Positions 9,330-64,000 of a DNA stretch of 64,000 nucleotides are shown one piece after another. Position numbers and translations under genes: made by a program. The number at the start of each line of letters is the position of its first letter. The stretch's first letter is position 1. Location: the NCBI RefSeq assembly GCF_009931435.1, contig NZ_CP043414.1, one strand, 5' to 3'. The notes beneath the pieces were generated by a model. That model was not told the DNA's origin. It saw only the letters and a program-made list of their open reading frames with translations, and did no database searches. This stretch comes from Escherichia coli (GTDB lineage: Bacteria > Pseudomonadota > Gammaproteobacteria > Enterobacterales > Enterobacteriaceae).

Positions 9330-11135
9330 ATGACGACACAGGTCCCACCTTCCGCGTTGCTTCCGTTGAACCCGGAGCAACTGGCACGCCTTCAGGCGGC
9401 CACGACCGATTTAACTCCCACCCAGCTTGCCTGGGTTTCTGGCTATTTCTGGGGCGTGCTCAACCAACAGCCTGCTGCGCTTACAGCGACGCCAGCGCCC
9501 GCCCCCGCCGCAGAAATGCCGGGTATAACTATTATCTCCGCTTCGCAAACCGGCAATGCGCGCCGGGTTGCTGAAACATTACGCGATGATTTATTAGCGG
9601 CAAAACTGAACGTTAAGCTGGTGAACGCGGGCGACTATAAATTCAAACAAATCGCCAGCGAAAAACTGCTCATCGTGGTGACGTCAACGCAAGGTGAAGG
9701 GGAACCGCCGGAGGAGGCCGTCGCGCTGCATAAGTTCCTGTTCTCCAAAAAAGCGCCGAAGCTGGAAAACACCGCGTTTGCTGTGTTTAGTCTCGGCGAT
9801 AGCTCTTATGAATTTTTCTGCCAGTCCGGGAAAGATTTTGACAGCAAGCTGGCGGAACTGGGCGGTGAACGCCTGCTCGACCGTGTCGATGCCGACGTTG
9901 AATACCAGGCTGCTGCCATCGAGTGGCGCGCCCGCGTGGTTGATGTTCTGAAGTCCCGTACGCCTGTCGCGGCACCTTCGCAATCCGTCGCTACTGGCGC
10001 GGTAAATGAAATCCACACCAGCCCGTACAGCAAAGACGCGCCGCTGGTGGCGAGCCTCTCTGTTAACCAGAAAATTACCGGGCGTAACTCTGAAAAAGAC
10101 GTTCGCCATATCGAAATTGACTTAGGTGACTCGGGCCTGCGTTACCAGCCGGGTGACGCGCTGGGCGTCTGGTATCAGAACGATCCGGCACTGGTGAAAG
10201 AACTTGTCGAACTGCTGTGGCTGAAAGGCGATGAACCTGTCACCGTCGAGGGCAAAACGTTACCTCTGAACGAGGCCCTACAGTGGCACTTCGAACTGAC
10301 CGTCAACACCGCCAACATCGTTGAGAACTACGCCACGCTTACCCGCAGTGAAACGCTGCTGCCGCTGGTGGGCGATAAAGCGAAGTTACAGCATTACGCC
10401 GCGACGACGCCGATTGTCGATATGGTGCGTTTCTCTCCGGCACAGCTTGACGCTGAAGCCCTCATTAACTTGCTGCGCCCGCTGACGCCGCGCCTGTATT
10501 CCATCGCCTCCTCGCAGGCGGAAGTCGAGAACGAAGTACACGTCACCGTTGGTGTCGTTCGTTATGACATTGAAGGCCGCGCCCGTGCCGGTGGTGCCTC
10601 TAGTTTCCTCGCGGATCGTGTGGAAGAAGAGGGCGAAGTCCGCGTCTTTATCGAACATAACGACAACTTCCGTCTGCCAGCCAACCCGGAAACGCCGGTG
10701 ATTATGATTGGTCCAGGCACCGGCATCGCGCCGTTCCGCGCCTTTATGCAGCAACGTGCTGCTGACGAAGCGCCGGGTAAAAACTGGCTGTTCTTTGGCA
10801 ACCCACACTTTACGGAAGATTTCCTCTATCAGGTGGAGTGGCAGCGCTACGTCAAAGAGGGCGTGCTGACACGTATCGATCTTGCCTGGTCGCGCGATCA
10901 AAAAGAAAAAATTTACGTACAAGACAAACTGCGCGAACAGGGCGCAGAGCTGTGGCGCTGGATCAATGACGGAGCCCACATTTATGTCTGCGGCGACGCT
11001 AATCGCATGGCGAAAGACGTTGAACAGGCACTTCTGGAAGTGATTGCCGAATTTGGTGGCATGGACACCGAAGCGGCGGATGAATTTTTAAGTGAGCTGC
11101 GCGTAGAGCGCCGTTATCAGCGAGATGTCTACTAA
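9330..11135 (+). CDS. cysJ: Sulfite reductase [NADPH] flavoprotein alpha subunit
   Basis: ORF track 9330..11135; N-terminus [24 protein letters not shown]... is CysJ, with flavodoxin and FAD/NADPH domains. Confidence 0.95.
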
Positions 11136-61252: not shown

Positions 61253-62019
61253 TGAGCAATTTATTAGGCCCCCGTGACGCCAACGGCATTCCGGTCCCGA
61301 TGACGGTGGATGAATCCATCGCCAGTATGAAGGCGTCGTTACTGAAAAAAATCAAACGTTCTGCCTACGTTTACCGCGTGGACTGCGGCGGCTGCAACGG
61401 CTGCGAAATTGAAATTTTCGCAACCTTATCGCCGCTGTTCGATGCAGAACGCTTCGGCATTAAAGTCGTTCCGTCTCCGCGTCATGCGGATATTTTACTG
61501 TTTACCGGCGCGGTCACCCGTGCAATGCGATCCCCTGCGCTGCGTGCGTGGCAGTCCGCGCCGGACCCGAAAATCTGTATCTCCTACGGTGCCTGCGGTA
61601 ACAGCGGCGGGATCTTCCACGATCTCTACTGCGTGTGGGGGGGTACGGATAAAATCGTCCCGGTGGATGTCTACATTCCGGGGTGCCCGCCAACGCCAGC
61701 CGCCACGCTGTACGGCTTTGCAATGGCGCTCGGCCTGCTGGAGCAGAAAATTCACGCCCGTGGGCCGGGTGAACTGGATGAACAACCGGCAGAGATCCTG
61801 CATGGCGATATGGTGCAGCCGCTGCGTGTAAAAGTAGATCGCGAAGCACGCCGCCTGGCGGGTTATCGTTACGGTCGCCAGATTGCCGATGATTTCCTGA
61901 CGCAGTTAGGGCAGGGTGAAGAGCAGGTTGCACGCTGGCTGGAAGCGGAAAACGATCCGCGTCTGAACGAGATTGTCAGCCATCTGAATCATGTTGTTGA
62001 AGAGGCGCGTATTCGATGA
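61252..62019 (+). CDS. hycG: Hydrogenase 3 small subunit HycG
   Basis: ORF track; [10 protein letters not shown] and GCPP motifs. Confidence 0.9.
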
Positions 62020-62426
62020 GTGAAAAGGTGGTGTTCAGTCAACTGAGCCGTAAATTTATTGATGAGAACGATGCTACGCCCGCCGAGGCGCAGCAGGTGG
62101 TCTATTACAGCCTGGCGATTGGTCACCACCTTGGGGTTATCGATTGCCTGGAAGCCGCGCTCACCTGCCCGTGGGATGAATATCTGGCATGGATTGCCAC
62201 TCTGGAGGCGGGCAGCGAAGCCCGCCGCAAAATGGAAGGCGTGCCAAAATATGGTGAGATCGTTATCGACATTAACCATGTGCCGATGCTGGCCAACGCA
62301 TTCGATAAAGCCCGGGCAGCGCAAACTTCGCAGCAGAAGGAATGGAGTACCATGCTGTTAAGTATGCTGCATGATATTTATCAGGAAAATGCCATCTATT
62401 TGATGGTGAGGAGACTGCGTGACTGA
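62016..62426 (+). CDS. hycH: Formate hydrogenlyase maturation protein HycH
   Basis: ORF track; 136 aa. Confidence 0.9.
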
Positions 62427-62889
62427 CGTTTTACTCTGTGTTGGCAATAGCATGATGGGCGATGATGGCGCAGGTCCGCTGCTGGCGGAAAAGTGCGCCG
62501 CCGCGCCGAAAGGTAACTGGGTGGTGATTGACGGCGGAAGCGCACCGGAAAACGACATTGTCGCCATCCGCGAACTGCGCCCGACGCGACTGCTGATTGT
62601 CGACGCTACGGATATGGGGCTAAACCCCGGCGAGATCCGCATCATCGACCCGGATGACATCGCTGAGATGTTTATGATGACTACCCATAACATGCCGCTG
62701 AACTACCTTATCGACCAGTTAAAAGAAGACATTGGCGAAGTGATTTTCCTCGGCATCCAGCCGGATATCGTCGGTTTTTACTACCCGATGACCCAGCCGA
62801 TTAAAGATGCGGTAGAAACCGTTTATCAACGACTTGAAGGCTGGGAAGGGAATGGTGGATTTGCGCAGTTAGCGGTGGAAGAAGAGTAG
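62419..62889 (+). CDS. hycI: Hydrogenase 3 maturation endopeptidase HycI
   Basis: ORF track; 156 aa. Confidence 0.9.
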   Translation: MTDVLLCVGNSMMGDDGAGPLLAEKCAAAPKGNWVVIDGGSAPENDIVAIRELRPTRLLIVDATDMGLNPGEIRIIDPDDIAEMFMMTTHNMPLNYLIDQLKEDIGEVIFLGIQPDIVGFYYPMTQPIKDAVETVYQRLEGWEGNGGFAQLAVEEE

Positions 62890-62913
62890 TTTTTCAGTAA
62901 GGAATTCAGGGAA

Positions 62914-63687
62914 TTGAAAATCAGAACAGGGATGTGCGCTTTTTTATTTTGCTTAGTGCTTCCTGCGCAGGCTACCAGCTTTACCGAATATCTGCCAATG
63001 AGTGACAGCGAATACGCGCAAAAGCGGGCGCTGAAACCTCTCCTGACTATGCCTTATTATACCGAGCAAACCTGGCATTTTAGAAAAGTGGGCGTTGCTG
63101 GCGTGACGCTTGAGAAGATGCCAAATGAAGAGGATTACTGGCAATTAACTGCTAAAGACCGCGCCGGTAAATCCTGGAAGGTGCCTGTGGGTATGCTGGC
63201 AAATATGGCGGGCAAAGGGCAACTCTATCGCGCCGATCTGGATCGTAACGGCATTCAGGATCTGGTTATCTGGTTACCAAGTGCTGGTAATGGTCTGGCT
63301 CCTTATGCACATTTAATCCTTATGACGTTCACGCGCGATGGTCGTCCCTGTGTCTTTGAACCCTGGGGATTCTACACCGCAAGCAAAACTGGCGTAGATG
63401 ATTTGCTGGATTTGCAAGGCAATGGCCACACACAATTGCTGGATATGCAGTTTAATTCTGGTTACTGGATAACCAGTCTGTATCAGGTAAAAGACGCCAA
63501 ATGGCAACGTGTTCACGGCTGGTTTGGCAAGTTAAGCTATCCCGCGCTCACGCGTTTTACTTATACCCCCAACCGTAAACTCGTCCTCAAACCCATTGCC
63601 GGGCGTGACCCGCAAACGGAAGATTTAGCGCTGACGCAGCGTTGTTTGAGAACAGGGGATATGCTTGAAGGGGTGAATCAGAACTGA
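62914..63687 (+). CDS. Hypothetical exported protein with N-terminal signal peptide (257 aa if TTG 62914; ATG 62932 is an alternative start)
   Basis: ORF track 62914..63687; MKIRTGMCAFLFCLVLPAQA-TSF... fits a Sec signal peptide with an AQA cleavage site. No recognised family. Confidence 0.6.
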   Translation: MKIRTGMCAFLFCLVLPAQATSFTEYLPMSDSEYAQKRALKPLLTMPYYTEQTWHFRKVGVAGVTLEKMPNEEDYWQLTAKDRAGKSWKVPVGMLANMAGKGQLYRADLDRNGIQDLVIWLPSAGNGLAPYAHLILMTFTRDGRPCVFEPWGFYTASKTGVDDLLDLQGNGHTQLLDMQFNSGYWITSLYQVKDAKWQRVHGWFGKLSYPALTRFTYTPNRKLVLKPIAGRDPQTEDLALTQRCLRTGDMLEGVNQN

Positions 63688-63849
63688 CTTTTTGCAGAGT
63701 GGGTATGAGGATTTTGGGGGAGAATTATATCGCGCGCAAGTGTTTACATATTGTGAACTTGGATTTGGTGAGCTATAGTTTCTGAACACATAAGGATAGA
63801 ACTCGCAGATGTGGCTGTTTACTTACTATAAGGAAGTTAAAACTTAAAA

Positions 63850-64000
63850 ATGCACATCATTTCGAAAGCGCCATTTGAAGAGTCTGCGCGCAAATATCCT
63901 AACGACGCTCTGGCTCTACACTCATTGTATCGGGTTATTAAGGAAACGGATTTTTCTACGCCAGAAGAAATGCGAACGGCGTTTCCCAACCTCGACAATT
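63850..64000 (+). CDS. HigB-like type II toxin (RelE/ParE superfamily), 5-prime part only; continues past window end
   Basis: ATG 63850 behind AAGGAAG; MHIISKAPFEESARKYPNDALALHSLYRVIKETDFSTPEEMRTAFPNLDN aligns with the E. coli HigB N-terminus as I recall it (MH.I..KA...A.KYP...L......F..PE....FP.LDN). Confidence 0.55.
   Translation, partial: MHIISKAPFEESARKYPNDALALHSLYRVIKETDFSTPEEMRTAFPNLDN

Follow-up and report, generated by a model that had tools for sequence, protein, structure and literature searches.

An apparently ancestral gene for an exported protein and a probable higBA insertion between hycI and ascB of Escherichia coli

What lies between the end of the hyc (hydrogenase-3) operon and the asc genes in E. 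coli, and how did it come to be there? The question is raised by a stretch of 64,000 nucleotides (nt) from E. coli (assembly GCF_009931435.1, contig NZ_CP043414.1), referred to below as the window, which ends with the hyc operon, an open reading frame (ORF) of 257 codons and the beginning of a toxin gene; the segment in focus is 62914-64000. In K-12, ascB lies 158 base pairs (bp) after hycI, and a first-pass annotation of the window took the additional genes for a strain-specific insertion. The comparisons reported here point with good confidence to two unrelated elements between hycI and ascB, an ancestral, dispensable gene for an exported protein and an inserted higBA toxin-antitoxin cassette; this confidence covers the anatomy and history of the site and not the function guessed for it. 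Overall the find is real yet largely ordinary, comprising a canonical HigBA paralogue already annotated by RefSeq and a conserved hypothetical exported protein.

Sequence past the end of the window was read from the complete genome of E. coli 2020CK-00188 (locus L001), which has a single mismatch to window positions 62400-64000 over 1,601 nt. The genes hycE to hycI were checked; the last named hyc gene, hycI (62419..62889, like all window features given here on the plus strand), encodes the hydrogenase-3 maturation protease according to the ORF list and the RefSeq annotation of L001. A spacer of 24 nt (62890..62913) with a Shine-Dalgarno-like AAGGA at 62899-62903 separates it from the 257-codon ORF, which begins with TTG and occupies 62914..63687, as first annotated. 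The distance of about 160 bp originally given from this ORF to the toxin gene measures 162 nt, and codons 1-50 of the 103 codons of higB (63850..64000; recognised from the ORF list, Pfam and Protein Data Bank (PDB) matches and L001) precede the end of the window, where the gene runs off. The full HigB and HigA proteins were consequently analysed from L001. There, higB (9451-9762) overlaps higA (9759-10178) by 4 bp, with the toxin gene first, and the order is hycI, 'hypothetical protein', a 103-residue 'HigB family toxin', a 139-residue protein with an Xre-type helix-turn-helix (HTH), convergent ascB, then ascF, ascG, hydN and hypF. An antitoxin just beyond the window had thus been correctly foreseen, and the stated presence of asc after hycI in K-12 is confirmed. 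Since ascB also follows higA in L001, the implied replacement of asc did not take place, and the hycI-ascB site of L001 contains no integrase, transposase or tRNA gene.

The 257-codon ORF is a real gene, because homologues occur in several genera and the ratio of nonsynonymous to synonymous divergence (dN/dS) is 0.10 to 0.24 in every pair, both within E. coli and between genera (0.0 to 0.1 for hycG, hycH and hycI). It is under purifying selection, and the reading frame is full in all seven Escherichia alleles checked. The Prokaryotic Genome Annotation Pipeline places the start in L001 at the ATG corresponding to 62932, which gives 251 residues. The TTG at 62914 is the start that we prefer, because it would yield a normal signal peptide and because the equivalent codon is ATG in Escherichia sp. 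MOD1-EC7003 and in Klebsiella-type homologues.

Four genera share this arrangement, with the gene directly after hycI in four members of Escherichia (Escherichia sp. MOD1-EC7003, E. whittamii, E. albertii and E. coli), in Salmonella enterica, in Phytobacter diazotrophicus and in Klebsiella spallanzanii, seven species altogether; what comes next downstream in these species is hydN or the asc operon. In the type strain of E. albertii, NBRC 107761 (L020, 6001-6770), it is a frameshifted pseudogene, split into two frames covering residues 1-81 and 78-257. The K-12 spacer between hycI and ascB, TAGTTTTTCATTAAGGAATCAGGACAGGGATGT joined to TCTTGATGGGGTGAACCAGCTCTGATGCC, retains the ribosome-site region and ATG start of the gene (ACAGGGATGT) as well as its final 19 or so nt (TCTTGATGGGGTGAACCAG). 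The 3' junction in K-12 is identical to that of a strain with the whole gene. The probability of a 17/20 match arising by chance within the roughly 1.7 kb searched is estimated at about 5e-5, and the K-12 remnant fits other alleles even better. Because both gene ends remain in the spacer, K-12 has evidently lost the interior of an ancestral gene, one that was not inserted in the other strains. Synonymous divergence (dS) between E. coli and Salmonella is 1.3 to 1.7 for this gene and 1.2 to 1.6 for hycI, a resemblance that fits vertical descent.

A single strain-specific island, comprising the 257-codon gene and higBA and displacing or interrupting the K-12 arrangement, was the original proposal, and it is in keeping with the short K-12 interval and with the absence of a megablast match to either gene from about half of E. 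coli genomes. Synteny across four genera, retention of both gene ends in K-12, dS to Salmonella equal to that of hycI, a site devoid of integrase, transposase and tRNA genes, and the continued presence of ascB downstream make it extremely improbable. What survives of the proposal concerns higBA, which behaves as an insertion; it is not, however, strain-specific, as the following counts show.

In 5,426 complete E. coli genomes, the 257-codon gene (scored intact at ≥ 80% covered) is intact in 1,462 and present as a 5' fragment only in about 837, so that K-12, O157 and about 73% of the genomes have no intact copy. The cassette is intact in 1,091 genomes, while a further 1,417 have the whole of higA and only the last 30 or so nt of higB. 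Both elements are intact, as in the window, in 747 genomes, and some trace of either is found in 2,643. Rather than an empty site, K-12 and about half of E. coli have the scars of deletions here. Six states of the locus were seen directly, with every copy single and chromosomal, and five of them can be set out: gene with higBA (the window and CFT073, L006); gene with orphan higA (L009); the first 182 or so nt of the gene fused to the 3' end of higB, beside an intact higA (strain 20AR0192, L007, 2015-2645); higBA without the gene (strain 405, L008); and scar only (K-12). The fusion is a common deletion class, from which some gene callers obtain chimeric 'ygjM' proteins of about 200 residues that combine the signal-peptide region with the HTH of HigA (P0043, P0045 and P0047). 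A contig of 1,647 bp labelled 'MAG: Collinsella sp.' (JAIJJM010000690.1, L017) holds the E. coli hycI end, the 257-codon gene (84%), higA (98.6%) and the ascB end; the contig is almost certainly of Escherichia origin, misbinned into an actinobacterial metagenome-assembled genome (MAG).

Could the gene nevertheless be decaying in E. coli and have no function there any longer? Its intactness in just 1,462 genomes and fragmentation in another 837 or so, the frameshift in the E. albertii type strain and the lack of a C-terminal domain found in the wider family might be so explained. This is very unlikely, given the low dN/dS in every pair, within E. coli too, the fully open frames of seven out of seven Escherichia alleles and a pair of cysteines (see below) gained and kept specifically in the enteric proteins. 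The alleles of the gene are unusually deep within E. coli, with dS of 0.33 to 0.54 compared with 0.03 to 0.11 for hycH; in the central third, the proportion of synonymous differences (pS) reaches 0.5. Among E. coli strains (window 62016-62889 against L002, L006, L009 and L010), dS climbs toward the 3' end of the operon, from 0.03 to 0.11 in hycH through 0.08 to 0.37 in hycI to the values of the 257-codon gene. This gradient points to old lineages of alleles, or to recombination breakpoints where the operon ends.

The boundaries of the higBA cassette emerge from a comparison of empty and filled sites. At the empty site of E. coli E69 and E. albertii, ...CAG AAC TGA is followed by TGGCAAACGC, the ORF ending right before a spacer that contains repetitive extragenic palindromic (REP) sequences; E. 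whittamii is the same with TAA as the stop. At the filled site of the window, L001 and CFT073, ...CAG AAC TGA continues into CTTTTTGCAG, and the cassette closes with GATTTTGACTGA before TGCCAAACGC. It measures 900 bp (L001 9289-10188), sits at the stop codon of the 257-codon gene and has the 5-bp direct repeat ACTGA at both flanks. The left copy (63683..63687) includes the stop codon, and the window holds the first 313 bp of the cassette (63688..64000). The higBA cassette alone evidently behaves as an insertion. A search past position 64000 for the antitoxin and mobile-element remnants had been recommended; the antitoxin was found, and of mobile-element remnants around the cassette only the 5-bp repeat was seen. 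Escherichia sp. MOD1-EC7003 has about 30 nt between two copies of ACTGA, including a 9-mer found in higA, which suggests, but does not prove, a decayed cassette.

Upstream of higB, the only stretches in common with strain 405, where the sequence before higBA is otherwise unrelated, are the ribosome-binding region and a 19-nt imperfect palindrome, GTGTTTACATATTGTGAAC (63740..63758). In strain 405 the palindrome has 13-nt arms that are 92% complementary. The palindrome overlaps the -35 hexamer of a sigma-70-like candidate promoter found by consensus scan (63751..63779; TTGTGA, 17 nt, TATAGT; 9/12 matches). A 9/12 match is weak alone, since promoter-like sites in the region are no more numerous than in shuffled sequences. 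The palindrome is what a HigA operator would be expected to look like and is regarded as a putative one.

The two proteins of the cassette are readily classified, and the HigB/RelE-type toxin announced from 50 codons is borne out by the full product. Over residues 22-93, HigB (103 residues) matches Pfam HigB_toxin (PF09907) at E 4.6e-23, and it hits nothing else in Pfam at E ≤ 10; among solved structures it is closest to the HigB proteins of K-12 and Shigella (5IFG, 6KML and 5YCL), with E about 1e-21 (8e-22 for 5IFG). HigA (139 residues) has a C-terminal HTH_3 domain (E 7.9e-9, residues 85-138), and its residues 9-138 align to K-12 HigA (5IFG chain B) with E 2.3e-35. The NCBIfam model antidote_HigA gives 14.3 bits, below its cut-off of 47.7 bits. 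The toxin is 39% identical to K-12 YgjN, and the antitoxin 46% identical to YgjM. As the K-12 pair occupies another chromosomal site, between fadH and rlmG, the cassette pair is best described as its paralogue. Homology predicts that HigB cleaves mRNA bound to the ribosome, and that HigA neutralises HigB and represses the promoter of the cassette via the palindrome at 63740-63758.

The K-12-type higBA (ygjNM; L026, 22088-22815) is itself intact in 2,824 E. coli genomes, and among the partial matches listed the first 237 or so nt of higB are gone while higA is kept. The CFT073 copy of the cassette toxin carries the UniRef representative name HIGB_ECOL6. A higBA deletion has been made in CFT073 (Norton & Mulvey, PMC3464220), where loci are stated to be syntenic with MG1655; its target may have been either the cassette described here or the ygjNM-syntenic pair. 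No experiment on the hyc-linked HigBA paralogue was found in the literature, nor did searches on hycI with HigB, STM2844, the protein accessions, 'hycJ' or the region downstream of hycI return anything relevant.

Matches to a defence system need to be considered at this point. PADLOC matches HigB to PD-Lambda-2_A (E 1.9e-15) and HigA to the N-terminus of PD-Lambda-2_B (E 2.1e-14; positions 9-115 of a 402-position profile). Membership of PD-lambda-2 itself was rejected, as the cassette has two genes followed by ascB and a 139-residue antitoxin without a peptidase domain. It might still be argued from these matches that higBA works mainly by abortive infection against phage, as the HigB-containing PD-lambda-2 does, but there is neither a peptidase domain nor a third gene, and canonical K-12 HigBA is by far the closest relative. 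A mainly anti-phage role accordingly seems rather improbable.

The protein encoded by the 257-codon gene was originally described as exported and of no recognisable family, and both descriptions stand. Residues 1-20 (MKIRTGMCAFLFCLVLPAQA; 62914..62973) are a predicted Sec signal peptide with MKIR at the start, a hydrophobic core of mean Kyte-Doolittle value 2.6, cleavage between AQA and TS, and no lipobox. The peptide was read from the sequence and its hydrophobicity, with no dedicated predictor behind the call, and confidence of the structural model is lower over these residues. The mature protein, of about 26 kDa, would be exported by Sec to the periplasm. No Pfam (even at E ≤ 10), NCBIfam or PADLOC model matched the protein. 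Close relatives found by word-indexed search are confined to Escherichia, Salmonella (68%), K. spallanzanii (64%) and a few metagenome proteins. The profile search recommended in the first-pass annotation yielded no named family; it revealed an unnamed family of 491 clusters (E ≤ 1e-3 among 1.84 billion cluster representatives). Its members are typically 330 to 360 residues long, with an extra C-terminal domain missing from the enteric proteins. The genome collection was scanned for the family with an alignment of 13 sequences, as an alignment of 90 was too diverse for this purpose.

Column counts in the 90-sequence alignment single out two loops. Motif 1, D108-L-D-R-N-G-I-Q-D116 (63235..63261), follows the integrin FG-GAP consensus D-x-D-x-[DN]-G-x-x-D, and its D108, D110, N112, G113 and D116 are kept in 84 to 90 of the 90 members; Ca2+ binding by this loop would be predicted. 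Motif 2, D166-L-Q-G-N-G-H-T-Q174 (63409..63435), has the family consensus D-L-D-G-D-G-R-A-E and is degenerate in the enteric clade (Q168 and Q174). Cys146 (codon 63349..63351) and Cys244 (codon 63643-63645) occur together in 9/9 enteric sequences and 0/81 other family members, a co-occurrence pointing to a periplasmic disulfide specific to the enteric clade.

The gene contexts of distant family members vary (a menF neighbour, a response regulator, radical SAM genes) and show no linkage to hydrogenase genes. An all-against-all comparison of the ORFs of nine distant loci found nothing in common except the family itself. The lack of a conserved neighbour fits a stand-alone binder; it does not identify the ligand. 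A Bryobacterales MAG (L021, 2016-4024) carries two tandem paralogues, both of the long two-domain form. A 340-residue protein from a 1,577-nt contig in ENA (P0030), with 90% identity over 39% of the query together with helicase/AAA Pfam domains, is probably a chimeric assembly or gene call.

Structure prediction depended on the depth of the alignment. With 13 sequences AlphaFold reached a mean predicted local distance difference test (pLDDT) of 64, and with 90 sequences AlphaFold2 (AF2) gave an all-beta domain at pLDDT 92.7 and predicted template modelling score (pTM) 0.88. Foldseek found no solved structure in the PDB at E < 0.001 for the model, and relatives in AFDB50 carry no more specific name than 'Periplasmic or exported protein' or 'VCBS repeat-containing protein'. 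A small beta-propeller-like domain is predicted, with one well-conserved integrin-type Ca2+ loop, a second degenerate loop and the enteric Cys pair. Profile matches to the FG-GAP repeats of integrin alpha-V in the PDB (E 0.1) and to XAC2610 (E 1.8) are both non-significant, and Pfam FG-GAP_3 matches 29/90 family members weakly at E ≤ 0.1 and 4/90 at E ≤ 0.001. The bacterial proteins among the top structural matches (PliI, XAC2610, XusB and CarG) and a fungal lectin are non-enzymatic binders. Most likely, the 257-residue protein would act as a non-enzymatic periplasmic binder stabilised by Ca2+.

Two kinds of partner may be considered for such a binder. PliI, X-Tfi (XAC2610) and Tsi1, which inhibit peptidoglycan hydrolases in the periplasm, have been suggested to belong to a single distant superfamily (PMC10933484), and a role of the 257-residue protein as a proteinaceous inhibitor of this kind is a tentative possibility; no neighbouring effector gene for a putative inhibitor was seen in the gene contexts examined. 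Equally conceivable, though doubtful, is a Ca2+-dependent carbohydrate or small-molecule binder, lectin-like or sequestering, that inhibits no enzyme. The scores for this reading are no stronger than those for the inhibitor class, which are likewise weak, and no gene for a transporter or catabolic partner was found nearby. A broader proposal is that the whole unnamed family (491 clusters at 50% identity, without a Pfam model or solved structure) consists of Ca2+-dependent periplasmic inhibitors or immunity-like proteins, distant kin of PliI, X-Tfi and Tsi1. In this proposal the enteric member, co-expressed with the fermentative hyc operon, would guard the cell wall in the anaerobic gut, be it from lysozymes or from peptidoglycan hydrolases of competitors. 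This broader proposal is unlikely.

Expression of the gene may depend on its position. A consensus scan of the plus strand found no promoter-like or terminator-like site in the 24-nt spacer, and because there is no terminator, the gene would probably be transcribed by read-through from the formate-induced, FhlA-controlled hyc operon. Does this make it a tenth hyc gene in effect, encoding an accessory of formate hydrogenlyase that acts, for example, at the periplasmic face of the membrane arm or in the handling of formate or H2? The post-hycI position kept in seven species and the short, terminator-free Escherichia spacer would suit such a role. K-12, however, produces active formate hydrogenlyase although it has lost the gene; the 257-residue protein is thus not required by the enzyme. 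Moreover, an intact copy is missing from O157 and most complete E. coli genomes, distant family members are unlinked to hydrogenase genes, and symE intervenes on the opposite strand in K. spallanzanii. An accessory function is consequently quite unlikely, and a stand-alone periplasmic binder remains the preferred description.

Several points weigh against the picture of an ancestral, hyc-linked exported protein beside an inserted, functional higBA. The position of the gene is interrupted by the opposite-strand symE between hycI and the gene in K. spallanzanii. Its co-transcription with hyc, although probable, is something that we infer from the spacer. The sliding-window ratio of nonsynonymous to synonymous differences (pN/pS) across the gene never exceeds 0.5, giving no sign of an arms race or positive selection. 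For the cassette, the 5-bp ACTGA could be microhomology and not a true target duplication, and no terminal inverted repeats were seen around it, only the 5-bp direct repeat. Toxicity of HigB and its neutralisation by HigA would follow from homology.

REP-type palindromes lie between higA and ascB (L001 10220-10297), just outside the window, and an Rfam scan of the locus returned only naRNA4 (REP-derived) downstream of higA, at a sub-threshold 39.6 bits against a gathering score of 59.5 bits. In K. spallanzanii the hycI-ascB interval (L004, 5400-7850) holds symE, the 257-codon gene, parD-parE and a second symE. Toxin-antitoxin modules seem to accumulate at this site in more than one genus.

The main value of these results is corrective: the K-12 hycI-ascB spacer is a deletion scar and not the ancestral intergenic region. 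In many E. coli, pathogens and commensals alike (CFT073, 55989 and O111), the hyc locus includes an additional exported protein that is invisible to work on K-12. Useful besides this correction are the exact boundaries of the cassette and the assignment of an 'unknown protein' to a large unnamed family, to which it provides a tractable entry and for which a confident structural model is in hand. In addition, the site displays the decay of a toxin-antitoxin system clearly, with intact cassettes, orphan antitoxins, fusion scars and empty sites within one species.

Compared with known systems, the cassette most resembles the type II pair HigB-HigA of K-12 (YgjN-YgjM; 5IFG, 6KML). At both loci the toxin gene comes first and overlaps the antitoxin gene by 4 bp; HigB, of 103 to 104 residues, falls in PF09907; HigA begins with a helical part and ends in an Xre HTH; and the alignments of both proteins span almost the whole length. 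Decay also affects the toxin gene first at either locus, and in many genomes higA is still intact. They differ in sequence, at the 39% and 46% identity given above, and in site, which is the hyc-asc junction here and fadH-rlmG in K-12. PD-lambda-2 (Vassallo et al. 2022, PMC9519451) shares a HigB-like first gene and a HigA-like HTH opening the second. It has three genes, however, with an Xre-peptidase fusion as the toxic part and a P4-antitoxin-like third gene, whereas the hyc-linked cassette has two genes and no peptidase.

The exported protein can be compared with two groups. With the FG-GAP/VCBS repeat proteins, such as the integrin alpha propellers, its family shares the D-x-D-x-[DN]-G-x-x-D hairpin, and its relatives in the AlphaFold database bear the UniProt automatic name 'VCBS repeat-containing protein'. 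It differs from them in having two motifs in about 230 residues and no seven-bladed propeller, and in lacking any Pfam match, even at E ≤ 10. With the inhibitors or immunity proteins PliI-Ah, X-Tfi and Tsi1 it would share export, a small beta-propeller-like domain and the absence of enzymatic motifs, and these are among the solved folds nearest to the AF2 model, although no PDB match reaches E < 0.001.

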